This document shows, piece after piece, positions 1-5,846 of a stretch of 5,846 nucleotides of DNA; the first letter of the stretch is position 1, and every line of letters starts with the position of its first letter. The notes beneath the pieces were generated by a model. The model was given only the letters and a program-made list of their open reading frames with translations. It made no database searches and was not told the origin of the DNA. Position numbers and translations under genes: made by a program. Source of the DNA: a virus (taxonomy: Duplodnaviria > Heunggongvirae > Uroviricota > Caudoviricetes); IMG/VR virus record IMGVR_UViG_2695420744_000016, positions 1-5,846 of that record; one strand, written 5' to 3'.

Positions 1-29
1 GAATCATTTTTCAGATGGTGGAAAGAACC

Positions 30-1973
30 ATGGCATTTAAACACTATGATGTTGTCAGGGCGGCGTCGCCGTCAGATCTTGCGGAAAAGCTGACACATAA
101 ACTGAAAGAGGGCTGGCAGCCGTTTGGCAGTCCTGTGGCTATCACGCCTTATACACTGATGCAGGCCATTGCCGCAGAGGGTGATGTGACCACGCCTGTG
201 GTTGTGCCCGACACAGGGGCTGGTGGCTCTCCGGGAGTGGCTACCACTGAACCGGAGTATTACTACGTTATTCCCCTGGCCGGGCAGTCGAACGGTATGG
301 CCTATGGTGAGGGGCTTCCTCTGCCGGAGACCTATGATCGCCCTGACTCCCGTATTAAGCAGCTGGCCCGTCGCAGCACTGTGACGCCGGGTGGTGATAC
401 CTGTGCATACAATGACGTTATTCCGGCAGACCACTGTCTGCATGATGTTCAGGACATGAGCGCACTTAACCATCCTCATGCAGACCTGAGTAAGGGCCAG
501 TACGGGACTGTCGGTCAGGGGCTGCATATTGCCAAAAAACTGCTGCCTTATATCCCGCAGAATGCCGGGATTCTTCTGGTGCCCTGTTGCCGTGGCGGGT
601 CTGGTTTAACCGTGGGTAATGACGGCACGTTCAGCGAAACGTCTGGTGCATCGGCAAATTCAGCCCGCTGGGGAGTGGGTAAACCGCTGTATCAGGATTT
701 TCTCTTCCGTACAAAAGCGGCGCTGTCGAAGAACCCGAAAAACAGGCTTCTGGCCGTGGTATGGATGCAGGGGGAAAATGATCTTGCGGACGGCAGTCAG
801 CAGCACAGCGGCCTGTTTACCACTATGGTGCAGCAGTTCAGGGCTGATATGGCTGCATATTCTGCACAGTGTGTTGGCGGAAGTGCTGGCTCGGTGCCGT
901 GGATTTGTGGTGACACCACGTATTACTGGAAGAATCTTAACGCCGATAAATATGAGGCGGTATATGGCGGTTACAAGGGCAGGGAAGCACAGAATATTTT
1001 CTTTGTACCGTTCCTGACGGATGAGAATGGACAGAGCACGCCAACGAATGCTCCGGCGGAAGACCCGGATATTGTGGCTGTCGGGTATTACGGTGCAGCA
1101 TCCCGAACCCAGGGCAGTTTTGTTTCGACACAGCGTGACAGCCATTTCAGCTCATGGGCACGCAGGGGCGTCATTTCAGACCGTCTGGCCTCAGCTATTA
1201 TGCTCCATGCAGGGCGCACGGCTGAATTGATGCGCGGGCAGACCGTGACACCACCGGATGAGAAGCCGTCACCTGATACACCATCAAAACCGTCCACGCC
1301 ACCCGCAGACACCACGACGATGAGTACGCTATTTGCTTACCGGGCATCTGAGTCTGAAGGACGGTTGACACCACAGGGTTGGGCTGCTGGAGGTGGCAAG
1401 GCTCAAATCGTGGATGATGCCGGAGCCAGCGGGGGTAAGGCAATGAAACTGACCAAGGAAACAGGAAGAGCCCCCTGGTACCTTGAGCATGATGCTGGTA
1501 ATGGTGCGGACCTGCTGGGTAAAGGTGGTCTTGTCAGTTGTCGTTTTAAACTCGATGGCGCGCTTACGGCTAATCAGTACGCACTGGCGCTGTACTGGCC
1601 GGTTTCTTCATTGCCTCAGGGTGTCACACTGGAAGGTAATGCCGGTAACAATCTGCTGGCGTCGTTTTACGTACAGAGCGATGCCACAGACCTCAACGTG
1701 ATGTACCACAAGGGTAACGCTGACCAGAACACGAAGCTGGGGTCATTCGGCGCATTTGACAACGAATGGCATACGCTGGGTTTCCGTTTTGCCGGTAATA
1801 ACAGCATTCAGGTGACGCCGGTGATTGATGGTCAGGATGGTGCACCGTTCATGCTGTCGCAGTCTCCGGTAGGTTCTTTTGCGGCAGACAAATTACGTGT
1901 AACGGATATCACAAAAGCGGCGACGTATACGGTGCTGATTGAAAGTATAACAGTGGAAGTGAATAACCCGTAA
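30..1973 (+). CDS. nanS-p: Prophage sialate O-acetylesterase, NanS-p-like (SGNH/SASA hydrolase with N-terminal DUF1737-like segment and C-terminal lectin-like domain)
   Basis: Longest ORF in window. ATG 30 has an SD-like GGTGGA at 17-22 with a 7-nt spacer; the in-frame ATG at 15 has no SD, so 645 aa from 30 is preferred. GQSN catalytic motif in IPLAGQSNGMAYGEG, Pro/Ser/Thr linker PPDEKPSPDTPSKPSTPPADTTT, then a beta-rich C-terminal domain. Matches from memory the ~645-aa esterases encoded downstream of stx/Q in EHEC lambdoid prophages. Confidence 0.85.
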   Translation: MAFKHYDVVRAASPSDLAEKLTHKLKEGWQPFGSPVAITPYTLMQAIAAEGDVTTPVVVPDTGAGGSPGVATTEPEYYYVIPLAGQSNGMAYGEGLPLPETYDRPDSRIKQLARRSTVTPGGDTCAYNDVIPADHCLHDVQDMSALNHPHADLSKGQYGTVGQGLHIAKKLLPYIPQNAGILLVPCCRGGSGLTVGNDGTFSETSGASANSARWGVGKPLYQDFLFRTKAALSKNPKNRLLAVVWMQGENDLADGSQQHSGLFTTMVQQFRADMAAYSAQCVGGSAGSVPWICGDTTYYWKNLNADKYEAVYGGYKGREAQNIFFVPFLTDENGQSTPTNAPAEDPDIVAVGYYGAASRTQGSFVSTQRDSHFSSWARRGVISDRLASAIMLHAGRTAELMRGQTVTPPDEKPSPDTPSKPSTPPADTTTMSTLFAYRASESEGRLTPQGWAAGGGKAQIVDDAGASGGKAMKLTKETGRAPWYLEHDAGNGADLLGKGGLVSCRFKLDGALTANQYALALYWPVSSLPQGVTLEGNAGNNLLASFYVQSDATDLNVMYHKGNADQNTKLGSFGAFDNEWHTLGFRFAGNNSIQVTPVIDGQDGAPFMLSQSPVGSFAADKLRVTDITKAATYTVLIESITVEVNNP

Positions 1974-2121
1974 GCAGGAAAAAAAGACCGCCGTGGCAGG
2001 GAAAACAAGGAGCCAGAACCGGCGGCAGAAGTCGCTACATCCTTAGCAAAAATATGCTGAGCAAAAAATGCAGGAGTTTTTTACTGGCAGGCATTGACCA
2101 TGTCAATAATGGAGATGAATA

Positions 2122-2304
2122 ATGACATTTTTACAGCTGATTATGTTGTATTTCTGTACAGCAGTTTGTGTGCTGTATCTTCTTTCTGGTGGGTACAGAG
2201 TCGTGAGAGATTTCTGGCGCAGACAGATTGACAAAAGGGCCGCTGAGAAAATCAGTGCCAGTCAGTCAGCCGGAACAAAACCCGAAGAGCCTCTCATTCC
2301 GTAG
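2122..2304 (+). CDS. Hypothetical small membrane protein (60 aa, one predicted TM helix followed by a basic segment)
   Basis: ATG 2122 preceded by GGAG at 2111-2114 with a 7-nt spacer. Hydrophobic stretch FLQLIMLYFCTAVCVLYLLSGG followed by RVVRDFWRRQIDKR. No family recognised. Confidence 0.4.
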   Translation: MTFLQLIMLYFCTAVCVLYLLSGGYRVVRDFWRRQIDKRAAEKISASQSAGTKPEEPLIP

Positions 2305-2341
2305 CAACTTTCTTAACAACACCTTTCAACGAGAAAATACC

Positions 2342-2611
2342 ATGTCAGAAATAAAATCGCTGGTCACTGCTGAAGCAGTGAAGGAAGTCCTGCGCTCTGA
2401 AGAAGTCAGAAGCGCACTGAAACAGCAACTTCGGCAGAACCTTGAGGCGCGTCTTGATGCAGAAGTGGATGCCATTCTGGATGAACTGCTGGGCGCACCG
2501 ACTGTTCCGGAGCCGGAAGGCATTGCGGATGACAGTGCTGTTTCAGATGGCGTCGGGTCTCAGCCTGATGGTAGCAGTGAGCCTCAGCCTGACGGCGAAA
2601 TGATGATGTAA
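2342..2611 (+). CDS. Hypothetical acidic protein (90 aa), helical N-terminus and D/E/P/S-rich tail
   Basis: The ORF track gives 2228-2611, but 2228 is a TTG codon and overlaps the 2122-2304 ORF. The first in-frame ATG is 2342, with a weak GAGA SD-like sequence about 7 nt upstream. About 20 acidic versus 7 basic residues. Tail contains an imperfect repeat SQPDG...EPQPDG (DNA 2558-2571 and 2582-2595). Confidence 0.5.
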   Translation: MSEIKSLVTAEAVKEVLRSEEVRSALKQQLRQNLEARLDAEVDAILDELLGAPTVPEPEGIADDSAVSDGVGSQPDGSSEPQPDGEMMM

Positions 2612-2686
2612 CCATGCGCAGGGGCTGTCGGTGTGAGCTGATGCCCCTCTTGTTGTTGTGAGCTTCCGGATTGCGGGAGACGGGGT

Positions 2687-2902
2687 ATGTACCAGATGGA
2701 AAAAATCACAACAGGTGTGTCATACACCACGTCAGCGGTGGGGACGGGCTACTGGTTCCTGCAGCTGCTGGACAGGGTTTCCCCGTCTCAGTGGGCGGCA
2801 ATAGGCGTACTGGGAAGTCTGCTGTTTGGGCTGCTGACATATCTGACTAACCTGTATTTCAAAATCAGAGAGGACCGTCGTAAGGCGGCGCGGGGAGAGT
2901 AA
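2687..2902 (+). CDS. S: Class II holin, phage-21 S21-like pinholin (71 aa) with dual-start motif
   Basis: GGGAG at 2675-2679, 7 nt before ATG 2687. Met1 and Met4 (MYQMEK) form a dual start as in the S21 71/68 antiholin/holin pair. Two TMDs: Gly/Ser/Thr-rich TMD1 ([21 protein letters not shown]) and TMD2 ([23 protein letters not shown]), with a basic C-terminus [13 protein letters not shown] that matches S21 as I recall it. Confidence 0.9.
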
Positions 2903-2906
2903 AGCG

Positions 2907-3251
2907 ATGAAGAAAAAATACGAACTGGTTGTTAAAGGGATAAATAATTACCCGAATAAGATTACTGTTACTGTGGCACTGGAAATTGGTGGGTATCCGT
3001 CACTGTTGTTGCCAGATGTGGCGATTAGTCTTGACCGTACTGAAGATGCCACGCTGGAGTTTTACGAAGCTGAGGCGAAAAAGCAGGCGAAGCAGTTTTT
3101 CATGGATGTTGCTGCCGGGTTATGTGAAGGGGATGGTCCGTTGCCGGAAAAGCGCCCCGTAATTTTAGAGGCGCAGGATGTGTTGATAACCTACAGAGGA
3201 AAACTACCGGGAATAATTACTGGTTCTCTGAAGACTCCACCGCTGGCCTGA
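2907..3251 (+). CDS. Hypothetical cytoplasmic protein (114 aa) between holin and endolysin; YdfR-like (DUF1327-type) by position and recollection
   Basis: ATG 2907 lies 4 nt after the holin stop (2900-2902) with GGAG at 2894-2897 as SD. No signal peptide or TM segment. The same holin - small unknown gene - lysozyme arrangement exists in E. coli K-12 Qin prophage (essQ-ydfR-rrrQ), recalled from memory. Confidence 0.7.
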   Translation: MKKKYELVVKGINNYPNKITVTVALEIGGYPSLLLPDVAISLDRTEDATLEFYEAEAKKQAKQFFMDVAAGLCEGDGPLPEKRPVILEAQDVLITYRGKLPGIITGSLKTPPLA

Positions 3252-3265
3252 AGACTTAACATATC

Positions 3266-3291
3266 CAGGGATTTGAAATCGATAAACCCTG
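3266..3291 (+). promoter_or_regulatory. Imperfect hairpin immediately upstream of the endolysin start codon
   Basis: CAGGG (3266-3270) pairs with CCCTG (3287-3291) plus two further A-T pairs after one mismatch. The endolysin ATG at 3302 has no recognisable SD in 3285-3301. Confidence 0.3.
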
Positions 3292-3301
3292 ATAAATATC
3301 C

Positions 3302-3835
3302 ATGAACACCAAAATCAAATACGGCCTGTCGGCTGCCGTTCTGGCGCTGATTGCCGCAGGTGCGCCTGCGCCTGAAATCCTCGACCAGTTTCTGGATGAA
3401 AAGGAAGGTAACCACACCACGGCATACCGTGATGGCGCGGGTATCTGGACCATCTGCCGCGGTGCCATCATGGTGGATAGTAAACCTGTCGTTCCGGGCA
3501 TGAAGTTGTCGAAGGAAAAATGCGACCAGGTTAACGCCATTGAGCGTGATAAAGCGCTGGCGTGGGTGGAGAAAAACATCAGAGTGCCGCTGACCGAACC
3601 CCAGAAAGCGGGGATCGCGTCATTCTGTCCGTACAACATTGGTCCCGGTAAGTGTTTCCCGTCGACGTTTTACAGACGAATTAATGCAGGTGATCGAAAA
3701 GGTGCCTGCGAAGCGATTCGCTGGTGGATTAAGGACGGTGGCAGAGACTGCCGTATTCGCTCAAATAACTGTTACGGTCAGGTATCCCGTCGTGACCAGG
3801 AGAGCGCGCTGGCGTGCTGGGGTATCGACAGATAA
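3302..3835 (+). CDS. R: SAR endolysin (signal-anchor-release lysozyme, T4-lysozyme-like GH24 muramidase), R21-type
   Basis: 177 aa. N-terminal Ala/Gly-rich weakly hydrophobic SAR segment GLSAAVLALIAAGAPAP. Catalytic E-x8-D-x5-T triad at E35/D44/T50 (EGNHTTAYRDGAGIWT). No Cys in the SAR segment, arguing against P1 Lyz-type disulfide caging. Confidence 0.92.
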   Translation: MNTKIKYGLSAAVLALIAAGAPAPEILDQFLDEKEGNHTTAYRDGAGIWTICRGAIMVDSKPVVPGMKLSKEKCDQVNAIERDKALAWVEKNIRVPLTEPQKAGIASFCPYNIGPGKCFPSTFYRRINAGDRKGACEAIRWWIKDGGRDCRIRSNNCYGQVSRRDQESALACWGIDR

Positions 3836-3924
3836 GCAGAATATTTTGCTGAAAAATGCGGTTTGCTCACACGGACGGATAACATGAAATCCTGCGAACT
3901 GGCGAAACGTAAGTGAATAAAAGT

Positions 3925-3964
3925 AAAAACCCCGTTTGTTGGCACCAAGCGGGGTTTTGTGTTT
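3925..3964 (+). terminator. Rho-independent terminator-like hairpin with flanking A- and T-tracts
   Basis: A-tract 3925-3929; stem 3930-3938 (CCCCGTTTG) pairs with 3946-3954 (CAAGCGGGG) as 9 bp including one G-U; 7-nt loop; followed by TTTTGTGTTT. The flanking A/T tracts make it potentially bidirectional. Confidence 0.6.
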
Positions 3965-4033
3965 CCTGACTCCGGAAAAGTCAAAGGAGAAAGTGTGTTT
4001 GATTTTAGCAAACTGATTCGGGAGATTCGAGTG

Positions 4034-4132
4034 ATGGCTGAAAAATTATCCACCTGGAAGTTCATTCTTATCTGGCTGGTGTTTGTGATTATGGCCTCCG
4101 GTTATTTCATCGGTCAGATACGCTGGTGGTGA
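4034..4132 (+). CDS. Candidate small single-pass membrane peptide (32 aa from ATG 4034; 46 aa if GTG 3995 is used), translationally coupled to Rz
   Basis: Below the 60-aa cutoff of the ORF track. GGGAG at 4020-4024, 9 nt before ATG 4034; alternatively AAGGAG at 3984-3989, 5 nt before GTG 3995. Translation [32 protein letters not shown]. Stop TGA 4130-4132 is 1 nt before the Rz ATG at 4134. Confidence 0.3.
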
Positions 4133-4133
4133 A

Positions 4134-4601
4134 ATGAACCGCGTACTGTGCGTGGTCATCATTGCTCTGCTGGTGGCCTGTGGTGCGCTTAGTCTGGGGC
4201 TGAATCATTACCGCGATAACGCCATCACTTACAAAGCGCAGCGCGATAAAAAAGCCAGAGAGCTGGAGCTGGCAAACGCAACCATTACTGATATGCAGGT
4301 GCGCCAGCGTGATGTTGCTGCGCTCGATGCAAAATACTCGAGGGAATTAGCCGATGCGAGAGCTGAAAATGAAACTCTTCGCGCTGACGTTGCCGCTGGT
4401 CGTAAGCGCCTGCGTATCAACGCCACCTGTCCAGGTCCCGTGCGTGAAGCCACCGGCACCGCCCGCGTGGATAATGCAACCGGCCCCCGACTGGCAGACA
4501 CCGCTGAACGGGATTATTTCACCCTCAGAGAGCGGCTGATGACGATGCACAAGCAACTGGAAGGGGCGCAGGAATATATCCGTACTCAGTGCCTGAAATA
4601 A
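4134..4601 (+). CDS. Rz: Rz inner-membrane spanin (i-spanin), lambda-type
   Basis: 155 aa with an N-terminal TM helix ([20 protein letters not shown]) and a periplasmic coiled-coil domain. Long near-identical stretches to lambda Rz as I recall it ([46 protein letters not shown]). Confidence 0.92.
4354..4539 (+). CDS. Rz1: Rz1 outer-membrane lipoprotein spanin (o-spanin), embedded in the +1 frame of Rz
   Basis: 61-aa ORF wholly inside Rz. Lipobox VSAC with Cys20. Pro-rich mature part whose C-terminus [32 protein letters not shown] is near-identical to lambda Rz1 as recalled. SD-like GGGA at 4342-4345. Confidence 0.88.
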
Positions 4602-4951
4602 GTTTTGTTGATGCGCCGTATCGTCGCTGTATTCCCTCATTAACAGAGACCGCAGCCCGACAGGGAGACTCCTCTGCGCGAGTGTGCGGGGATAATCAAA
4701 AACGATACACACCGGGGTTTACCGCGTTAACGGAGCGCGGCGTTGTCCCCTCATAGTCGCCTGTCCGGTGCGATGGTGGAAGAAACCGGATGTTTATCAC
4801 TATTAATTGATGACACAGAAATGGATTCATTGAATTTCAGCACGTTTTTGTATTCGTGTTATTGAACATCTGTTTATTTTACTTTTAACATATTGATAAT
4901 AAAAAGAGCTGTAAATCTTTAGATGAGTCGATTTTGTCCGGGGAAGTTCAA

Positions 4952-5092
4952 ATGGATTTTATGCTGACGGTTTCTGGTGTGGTTATCCTGTCCATTGCTT
5001 ATACTGCAGATAAATATGGCTGCCATTTGTTATCACGTATTGGCGCTTATTGTTCGTTGATGCTGATTTTCTCGTCGCTTTTTTTTGAGTAA
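4952..5092 (+). CDS. Candidate small hydrophobic protein (46 aa), hypothetical
   Basis: ATG 4952 preceded by GGGGAAG at 4940-4946. Translation MDFMLTVSGVVILSIAYTADKYGCHLLSRIGAYCSLMLIFSSLFFE. Lies in an AT-rich segment; no family recognised. May correspond positionally to the small ORF annotated a few hundred bp before the right end of lambda, which I cannot confirm. Confidence 0.2.
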   Translation: MDFMLTVSGVVILSIAYTADKYGCHLLSRIGAYCSLMLIFSSLFFE

Positions 5093-5224
5093 GTTATATT
5101 AATTATAACAAATAATTTTCTGTGTTATTTTTTCAGGCTATCCCGTCAGAGGGGAAGCCTGTACTGCCGGGGAGCGAATGGAAAACTGATGTGTCCGGTA
5201 ACTGCGTGTTCTGTGAACACCATG

Positions 5225-5410
5225 TTACTTAATTATGTAATTCATACCCGAACTCTCTGTTGACAGCCTTCTTCTGCAGGCTTCAATAACCCACGCTGAA
5301 AAGTTTCCTGAACCTTTCAGATCAAGAGCGATGTTAATTTGTTCAATCATCTGGTTTGGAAATCGGATGTTGCGGGTTGTTGTTCTGCGGGTTCTGTTCT
5401 TTGATGACAT
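5225..5410 (-). CDS. Arc/Mnt-like ribbon-helix-helix (RHH) DNA-binding protein, 61 aa, orphan
   Basis: Reverse-strand ORF. Basic N-terminal arm (MSSKNRTRRTTTRN), predicted beta-strand NIRFP, helix A QMIEQINIALDL, G-x-N-x-S turn and helix B NFSAWVIEACRRRL. Aligns by eye with P22 Arc (FNLRWPREVLDLVRKVAEENGRSVNSEIYQRV). A -10-like GATAAT sits on the reverse strand at 5444-5449. Confidence 0.6.
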   Translation of the reverse strand: MSSKNRTRRTTTRNIRFPNQMIEQINIALDLKGSGNFSAWVIEACRRRLSTESSGMNYIIK

Positions 5411-5465
5411 AATGTTTCCCCATATTCAGTGTTGCTGATTTGTATTATCTGAAGTTGCTTTTACG

Positions 5466-5512
5466 TTAATTTGATGCAGATCAATTAATACGATACCTGC
5501 GTCATAATTGAT
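5466..5512. repeat. Cluster of TAATTGAT-type inverted repeats upstream of the RHH gene
   Basis: TAATTTGAT (5467-5475), ATCAATTA (5480-5487) and its exact reverse complement TAATTGAT (5505-5512); also CGTCA (5500-5504) paired with TGACG (5517-5521). Confidence 0.35.
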
Positions 5513-5609
5513 TATTTGACGTGGTTTGATGGCGTAGATGCACGTTGTGACATGTAGATGATAATTATTATCATTTTGCGGGTCCTTTCCGGCGATCCGA
5601 CAGGTTACG

Positions 5610-5621
5610 GGGCGGCGACCT
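5610..5621 (+). other. cosN, lambda-type 12-nt cohesive-end sequence GGGCGGCGACCT
   Basis: Exact lambda cohesive-end 12-mer. Flanked upstream by GGGTCCTTTCCGGCGATCCGACAGGTTACG (lambda right end as recalled, with one T-to-C difference) and downstream by CGCGGGTTTTCGCTATTTATGAAAATTTTCCGG (lambda left end). Confidence 0.85.
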
Positions 5622-5798
5622 CGCGGGTTTTCGCTATTTATGAAAATTTTCCGGTTTAAGGCATTTCCGTTCTTCTTCGTCGTAACTTAATGTTTTTATT
5701 TAAAATACCCCCTGAAAAGAAAGGAAACGACAGGTGCTGAAAACGAGCTTTTGGGCCTCTGTCGTTTCCTTTCTCTGTTTTTGGCCGTGGAATGAACA
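5622..5798 (+). other. cosB terminase-binding region (R3, I1/IHF, R2, R1 elements) of a lambda-type cos
   Basis: Nu1-binding R-element cores present: CATTTCC at 5662-5668 (R3; lambda has CGTTTCC as I recall), GGAAACG at 5723-5729 (R2, inverted), CGTTTCC at 5763-5769 (R1). AT-rich IHF-type segment around 5683-5705. Ends at the Nu1 start. Confidence 0.7.
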
Positions 5799-5846
5799 AT
5801 GGAAGTCAACAAAAAGCAGCTGGCTGACATTTTCGGTGCGAGTATC
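5799..5846 (+). CDS. nu1: Terminase small subunit Nu1 (N-terminal 16 codons; CDS continues beyond the window)
   Basis: Translation MEVNKKQLADIFGASI is identical to the N-terminus of lambda gpNu1 as recalled, at the expected distance (about 190 bp) downstream of cosN. Confidence 0.9.
   Translation, partial: MEVNKKQLADIFGASI

Follow-up and report, generated by a model that had tools for sequence, protein, structure and literature searches.

Soluble proteins that regulate holins can be encoded next to the holin genes, as is the case with LydB of phage P1 and RIII of phage T4. Other phage proteins, such as gp0.7 of T7, Srd of T4 and Dip of phiKZ, target RNase E; Dip is directed at the RNA-binding segments of the C-terminal scaffold of this enzyme. 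The gene discussed in this work belongs to the family of YdfR, a small protein encoded by the Qin prophage of E. coli K-12. In a genomic bacterial two-hybrid screen a fragment of K-12 YdfR, residues 1-72, was recovered; signals with Rne 1-597 were also obtained for full-length YdfR, and Rne 1-598, FLAG-tagged on the chromosome, co-purified with Strep-YdfR (Goepel et al. 2026, PMC13232886). DNase-resistant nucleic acid was also found to co-purify with YdfR (PMC13232886). Because the co-purification was done from lysate without nuclease, the contact between YdfR and Rne may be bridged by RNA. Overexpression of YdfR changed few transcripts, and caused neither toxicity nor slowing of growth (PMC13232886). 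In one overexpression screen ydfR was listed with a threefold rise of the streptomycin MIC.

Gene order in the window

The window, by which we mean the whole stretch of 5,846 nucleotides analysed here (positions 1 to 5,846 of the IMG/VR record IMGVR_UViG_2695420744_000016), was recognized from the Pfam and PHROG annotation of its ORFs as a lambdoid, Stx-phage-like late region. Its features, in the order of the window, are the following.

15-1973: NanS-p-type esterase, the first gene
2122-2304: DUF1378 small ORF, between esterase and holin
2342-2611: DUF826 small ORF, between esterase and holin
2687-2902, plus strand: P21-type class II holin S of the pinholin family (PF04971 "P21 holin S", E=9e-33; phrog_9876/phrog_20 "holin")
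2892-2899, plus strand: Shine-Dalgarno (SD) sequence GGGGAGAG inside the holin gene (GGAG 9 nt before the ATG at 2907)
2907-3251, plus strand: YdfR/DUF1327-family gene, 114 aa (PF07041, E=2.4e-45)
2907-3131, plus strand: conserved acidic core domain, aa 1-75 (AF2 core model, alignment, dN/dS)
3132-3248, plus strand: variable C-terminal tail module, aa 76-114, PEKRPVILEAQDVLITYRGKLPGIITGSLKTPPLA (pLDDT, dS, alternative tails)
3237-3301, plus strand: conserved pre-R leader ending TCCTGATAAATATCC-ATG (alignment, BLASTN junctions)
3302-3835, plus strand: SAR-type lysozyme R, 177 aa (PF00959, E=4.3e-24; phrog_7 endolysin)
4134-4601 and 4354-4539: Rz and Rz1
Last in the order, minus strand: DUF3950 gene

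The holin gene has an M1/M4 dual start, and its TAA stop codon (2900-2902) is separated by four bases (AGCG) from the ATG of the DUF1327 gene. This gene ends with TGA at 3249-3251, and an intergenic segment of 50 nt (3252-3301) precedes the start of the lysozyme, which has a Gly/Ala-rich N-terminus and an E-x8-D-x5-T triad. The initial annotation, made from the sequence alone, had placed a 114-aa ORF with a Shine-Dalgarno sequence 4 nt after the stop of a pinholin gene and 50 nt before a SAR endolysin gene. The coordinates were exact, the SD is the one within the holin gene, and the nature of both flanking genes was borne out by the profile matches, the dual start and the lysozyme N-terminus. 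The protein was correctly described as cytoplasmic-type, it lacks a hydrophobic segment (maximum Kyte-Doolittle 19-residue mean 1.18) and has a pI of 5.5. We could not find a promoter- or terminator-like site of its own flanking the DUF1327 ORF in the window, and a search of Rfam returned only noise at E<=1 in or 3' of the ORF. For its expression the gene presumably depends on the late transcript and on the SD that lies within the holin gene.

Some other features of the region deserve mention. The arrangement of the DUF1378 and DUF826 ORFs between the esterase and the holin is common to other Stx phages, and a DUF1378 gene is also found near the DUF1327 relative of a Cronobacter prophage (L123, 5245-5424). 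A strong two-way terminator-like hairpin of 13 pairs (AAAACCCCGTTTG...CAAGCGGGGTTTT) is located at 3926-3958 between R and Rz, at the site where 933W and BP-4795 have the ant antirepressor gene, which is missing from the window. The small ORF that follows (3959-4132; phrog_6632, unknown function) has a hydrophobic C-terminal stretch and terminates 1 nt upstream of the Rz start codon; at the equivalent place BP-4795 carries ORF50, a small ORF similar to it. The ORF of the window may encode a small membrane protein that has gone unrecognised as part of the lysis cassette.

A common and catalogued prophage gene

The 114-aa protein matched the Pfam family DUF1327 (PF07041) over model positions 1-92 of 93 with a score of 153.1 bits, the gathering cut-off of this family being 25 bits, and phrog_406 with E=4e-64. 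At E<=1 DUF1327 was the only Pfam match, and all PHROG matches carried the label "unknown function". The family membership proposed in the initial annotation was thus confirmed by the profile search. The DNA is identical over all 345 of 345 nt (100%) to the gene of WP_000731267.1, a "YdfR family protein" of a lambdoid prophage of E. coli FDAARGOS_536, and the protein is 97% identical to the products of the equivalently placed genes of H-19B, BP-4795 and many Stx1a/Stx2c phages. The gene is already known and catalogued, it is a common prophage gene of the YdfR/DUF1327 family, and its function is, as the initial annotation had also said, unassigned in annotation.

Two word-indexed searches of 5.8 billion proteins yielded about 270 clusters, all of them from Escherichia or Shigella, and 93 of 1.84 billion cluster representatives were found at E<=1e-3 by HMM search. 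When one genome per species was scanned, the family was encountered only in E. coli, E. ruysiae, E. albertii and two MAGs (L012 and L014). The MAGs are labelled Veillonella parvula and Bacillota, and their contigs contain Qin-like holin-DUF1327-lysozyme cassettes; most likely they represent binning contamination by E. coli prophage DNA. In E. coli the family was present in 3159 of 5426 complete genomes (about 58%), at up to 8 places per genome and at 6,736 places altogether. P0264, used as locus query, found nothing in viral contigs. In a protein of 1666 aa (P0255) eight weak repeats matched positions 15-52 of the DUF1327-core profile (E=2.4e-7), this match may reflect a repeated beta-hairpin or may be spurious.

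Conserved core and exchangeable tail

AF2 predicts a beta-beta-beta-alpha fold for the core, with strands at residues 5-14, 18-27 and 37-43 and a helix at 50-74. The core-only run, made with a more diverse alignment, gave a mean pLDDT of 87.9 and a pTM of 0.77, whereas in the full-length model the core was confident and the tail had pLDDT below 50; the tail is probably disordered. In 22 sequences from five genera Y5, L7, Y53, E54 and A57 are invariant, and M1, E6, V9 and V21 are nearly so. The core was acidic in every member examined (pI 4.3-5.2; 5.0 in the window copy). Between two deep E. coli alleles the dN/dS of the core (codons 1-75) was 0.21-0.25, with a dN of about 0.40 and a saturated dS of 1.6-2.0, values indicating that the core is under clear purifying selection. 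Because of the Pfam and PHROG matches and the dN/dS of the core, the ORF is not a product of chance.

The tail has a different history. In codons 76-112 the dS was only 0.09-0.45 and the dN/dS 0.1-1.1, and the alignments revealed a mosaic C-terminus, which gives rise to forms of 72, 103, 104, 114, 116, 176, 183 and 268 aa. BLASTN alignments of the 114-aa form with the 176-268-aa forms stop at nt 3242, then jump to the conserved segment preceding R. As judged from these comparisons, the tail is a recently shared, recombining module, an exchangeable appendage of the core. The same tail module (EKRPxILEAQxVxITYxGKLPGxITGSLKTPP) is also found at the C-terminus of P0279 (L124, 608-946), a protein with a different, coiled-coil N-terminus, whose gene is placed upstream of a Phage_holin_8 gene. 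By its distribution the tail module behaves as an independently shuffled peptide.

An optional gene in the lysis cassette

In the E. coli loci for which the context was available (93 loci with 67 distinct holin/DUF1327/R triplets) the stop of a P21-type holin gene was always exactly 4 nt upstream of DUF1327, and a gene for a 177-aa lysozyme was downstream. In all E. coli loci checked, R downstream of DUF1327 was 88-99% identical. The same placement is seen in Qin (essQ-ydfR-rrrQ), BP-4795, H-19B, mEp460, 2H10 and Evi. The initial annotation had expected homologs at this position in other lambdoid prophages and selection on the reading frame, both of which were found.

The gene is nevertheless optional. 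Among the 369 phage records that have this S/R cassette, DUF1327 is present in only 101 and missing from about three quarters (approximately 268). In 933W, which has no DUF1327, R itself fills the identical 4-nt slot after the S stop and uses the same SD, GGGGAGAG; the homology between the window and 933W ends at the ATG (nt 2910) and restarts at nt 3329, inside R. The pairing with the holin is loose. Holins that were identical to that of the window over the 68 residues compared are paired with DUF1327 cores that are 43% (L108), 57% (L010) or 100% (window) identical to the core of the window copy, and an identical holin protein occurs with three deep DUF1327 alleles or without DUF1327. We also considered co-evolution of holin and DUF1327 and rejected it, in view of these pairings the correlations reflect linkage only. 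The GC content of the DUF1327 gene is 0.43-0.47, that of its neighbours 0.55-0.58. Presence or absence among collinear phages (BP-4795 vs. 933W) and deviating GC content are features of a moron; the promoter and terminator of its own that a moron should also have were not found in the window. We are highly confident that this is a real YdfR-family accessory gene, which is dispensable for lysis.

The insertion has a possible consequence for the translation of the endolysin gene. In all DUF1327-bearing cassettes the pre-R leader is AU-rich and lacks an SD, whereas R of 933W uses the strong GGGGAGAG inside S. No significant RNA structure was predicted in the leader (fold z-score 0.27). In Qin, ydfR and R share an ATGA, in which stop and start overlap. 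On the basis of these sequence features the DUF1327 insertion may alter endolysin translation, and with it the holin-to-endolysin ratio. In an extreme version of this idea the protein would have no function, and the insert would act solely in cis, by uncoupling R from the SD of the holin. The difference between the R leaders fits this explanation, but the core is under purifying selection (dN/dS about 0.22 at dS 1.6-2.0), a foldable domain is conserved in five genera, and a protein-level interaction has been reported for K-12 YdfR, all of which make the explanation extremely improbable.

Relatives outside Escherichia

The most distant members of the family are core-only proteins of 72-76 aa in Yersinia rohdei, Serratia, Pantoea piersonii and Cronobacter malonaticus. 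They reciprocally match the E. coli genes over their full length, with 31-45% identity. Their genes are mostly located between tail genes, with no holin nearby:

L115: between tail assembly chaperone (TAC) and tape measure (TMP)
L100 and L117-119: at the M|L tail junction
L120-122: at the L|K tail junction
L096-098: at the I|J tail junction
L123 (Cronobacter): after Rz, in a lysis cassette with different holins

Altogether there are about seven insertion classes, of which three are near lysis genes (S|R, after Rz and upstream of a holin_8 gene). The view that the gene is not a random moron, expressed in the initial annotation, is contradicted by this multiplicity of sites together with the low GC content and the facultative presence.

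The initial annotation had concluded from the conserved placement that the gene is involved in lysis timing or in the control of the endolysin or the pinholin. A cytoplasmic regulator of this kind could act, similarly to an antiholin, on the cytoplasmic tail of the pinholin, or could modulate release of the SAR endolysin, and would thereby set the time of lysis. The invariant position in E. coli, the translation together with the lysis genes, the overlap with R in Qin, the Cronobacter copy directly after Rz, the three insertion classes near lysis genes and the precedent of LydB and RIII are all compatible with such a role, and the K-12 ydfR (Keio) deletion was scored as envelope-leaky in a CPRG screen. 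This last result, however, may stem from polarity of the kanamycin cassette on rrrQ, which is plausible because the cassette immediately precedes this SAR lysozyme gene, the start of which is overlapped by the stop of ydfR. Moreover, most phages with the same S and R genes do without DUF1327, holin and DUF1327 do not co-vary, most copies outside the genus are among tail genes so that linkage to a holin is not obligatory, and there is no similarity to any lysis family of Pfam or PHROG. The cassette already encodes an antiholin through the dual start of the holin, and YdfR overexpression produced no growth or lysis phenotype. We regard a lysis regulator as distinctly unlikely. The best-supported explanation of the position in the lysis cassette is that the accessory gene captured a translation slot coupled to the holin, and not that it has a role in lysis.

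A convergent partner gene

In the wider family the DUF1327 core points in the direction of the late operon. Each core gene found outside the genus (L096-L100, L115, L117-L123) has a convergent minus-strand gene of 79-186 aa within 12-49 nt downstream. A similar pair is present between S and R of the E. coli phage Evi, where a 72-aa core is accompanied by a 98-aa minus-strand gene, whose product shares about 60% identity with the partners of L096 and L100. When this partner family (family A, Evi-type) was used as query, all 14 of 14 viral-contig loci had a DUF1327 core next to it in convergent orientation. In E. coli, S|R loci whose gaps measure 233-452 nt contain convergent full-length members of phrog_2572, 2411, 18136, 1853 and 25324. 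There are at least eight partner families (phrog_25324, 10490, 18578, 2572, 2411, 18136, 1853 and a 79-aa orphan), which show no likeness to one another by BLAST or hhalign (best hhalign probability 7%), and which match neither Pfam nor PADLOC, nor any known defence or toxin model. Pairs of a core and a convergent gene occur at about six late-operon junctions in five genera. The loci are:

L003, 2501-3040: convergent pair
L096, 3001-3548: convergent pair
L098, L100, L115 and L117-L123: convergent pairs
L004, 3000-3266: further convergent pair
L008, 3311-3589: further convergent pair
L034/L077, about 3463-3739: further convergent pair
L095, 3817-4131: further convergent pair

A terminator hairpin (AAGCGGC...GCCGCTT followed by a T-run) is located on the minus strand between the two stops (L003, 2719-2738; L096, 3220-3239). 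It is kept in Evi and L096 despite the different insertion sites, which indicates, as far as can be told from the sequences, that the hairpin travels with the module. With this conserved minus-strand terminator the partner is a transcription unit of its own; in Evi and L096 it is only the convergent partner to which a terminator of its own belongs. The window, BP-4795, H-19B, mEp460 and Qin represent the partner-less state, and tblastn of the window and of the long-form tails detected nothing left over from a convergent partner.

These pairs raise the question whether DUF1327 is the constant component of an accessory cassette of two genes, and whether the window copy is one that has been stripped of its partner. 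The 14 of 14 loci found with family A, the closely spaced minus-strand genes outside the genus, the PHROG genes in the E. coli gaps, the mutual dissimilarity of the partner families and the hairpin shared by different insertion sites speak for such a cassette. On the other hand, the window has neither a partner nor its remnant; forms without a partner (114, 103-104 and some 116 aa) abound, and purifying selection still acts on their core. It is also unlikely that one conserved protein binds eight unrelated partners, and none of the partners matches a known defence or toxin model. On balance we find the stripped-cassette explanation unlikely, and the same must be said of two proposals that go with it: that DUF1327 controls or counteracts the partner in lytic growth, for example at the RNA level via antisense late transcription, is rather doubtful, and there is only a small chance that the orphan in the window survives on a secondary function or slowly decays.

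A more far-reaching form of this idea can also be put forward. DUF1327 might be the constant marker of an undescribed mobile two-gene module of the late operons of temperate Enterobacterales phages, which we consider quite improbable. It is just as hard to believe that the late-strand beta3-alpha protein recruits RNase E and thereby silences or unleashes, on the antisense late transcription, a partner expressed from the prophage. We also give little credence to the possibility that the partner-less copy in the window is a derived form, which would have kept only the RNase E-directed activity.

RNase E or RNA as a candidate target

The fragment of K-12 YdfR that binds Rne (residues 1-72) coincides with the conserved core. 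By this analogy, it is possible, although far from assured, that the product of the window gene is a late-expressed accessory protein directed at RNase E or RNA. In such a mechanism DUF1327 would be a late-transcribed, cytoplasmic, moron-type accessory gene in the translational slot directly behind the holin gene, and the acidic beta-beta-beta-alpha core of 75 residues would be its functional part. Similarly to K-12 YdfR, the core would bind the catalytic N-terminal half of RNase E, either directly or through RNA, and by this binding would adjust RNA decay in late lytic growth. Late expression would come from the Q-dependent transcript, RNase E or RNA is the putative target of an allele that shares 47% core identity with K-12 YdfR, and the window gene may in this way influence mRNA stability.

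There are several observations that count against this mechanism. The degree of core identity is modest in view of the analogy drawn, the core is acidic, and few transcripts changed upon YdfR overexpression. Lysines K58, K59 and K62, which resemble the KKxAK motif of dsRBDs, are not conserved across the family; a dsRBD-like or hibernation-factor-like RNA-binding fold would be expected to have conserved basic RNA-contact residues, while the core pI is 4.3-5.2. The window itself holds nothing that would tie the DUF1327 gene to RNA.

Alternatively, the moron, sitting in a late-operon hot spot, could encode a small acidic protein that serves host takeover or anti-defence and is aimed at something else than RNase E; such a protein might, for example, mimic nucleic acid or inhibit an enzyme. 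The acidic core of all members, the small size, facultative presence, low GC content and many insertion sites of the gene, and its very high frequency in E. coli would suit such a protein. PADLOC found no match for DUF1327 or for any convergent partner, but PADLOC models defence systems, so this says little about anti-defence proteins. Foldseek found no structural match in BFVD at E<=0.001, and a search of solved structures for sequence relatives of DUF1327 gave only noise (E>=0.1). RNase E is the only experimental partner that has been reported, and we see little likelihood for a target of a different kind. The RNase E/RNA-directed accessory protein is the reading that we tentatively adopt.

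The family is present in more than half of the complete E. coli genomes, often in several prophages, including Shiga-toxin phages, and the transcript that carries DUF1327 also carries stx and the lysis genes. If DUF1327 tunes RNA decay or lysis, yield and release of the toxin could be affected; if it is a mere hitch-hiking accessory gene, it is negligible in models of Stx-phage lysis. The combination of a conserved core with a hypervariable convergent gene also offers a guilt-by-association handle on at least eight uncharacterised families of small phage proteins.

Comparison with described systems

It is instructive to compare the DUF1327 loci with acr-aca loci, where a conserved marker gene stands beside variable accessory genes of small size within structural operons of temperate phages. 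The two share, as a conceptual analogy, the combination of a conserved small gene with a hypervariable small gene at varied late-operon sites. The DUF1327 pair is, however, convergent and not co-directional, DUF1327 has no helix-turn-helix, and none of its partners is known as an anti-defence protein. With LydB of P1 and RIII of T4 the common feature is a small cytoplasmic protein that is encoded right beside the holin and co-expressed with it. DUF1327 differs from them in having no sequence or profile similarity to them, in not being obligatorily linked to a holin and in being absent from most phages with the same holin. The phage proteins that target RNase E resemble YdfR in that the latter is also a small phage-encoded protein reported to associate with this enzyme. 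In contrast to those proteins, the YdfR family is late and not early, it is the catalytic N-terminal half that YdfR is reported to bind, the effect of its overexpression on the transcriptome is minor, and there is no homology.

K-12 YdfR (b1555, P76160) belongs to the same Pfam family, its gene starts 4 nt after that of a P21-type holin and precedes that of a 177-aa lysozyme, and the beta3-alpha core can be aligned residue for residue over aa 1-74. The differences are that the cores are only 47% identical, YdfR has 103 aa with an unrelated tail (...KIENPANKHERPHHKYL), and its stop overlaps the R start, whereas there is a 50-nt gap in the window. RNase E binding was reported for YdfR itself, and may by analogy extend to the window allele. 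The closest counterparts are ORF47 of BP-4795, the homologues in H-19B and in Stx1a/Stx2c phages, and WP_000731267.1. BP-4795 has ant between R and Rz, which is absent from the window, and otherwise differs in nothing material: all these genes encode 114 aa, have the same flanks, and are separated from them by the same 4 nt and 50 nt.
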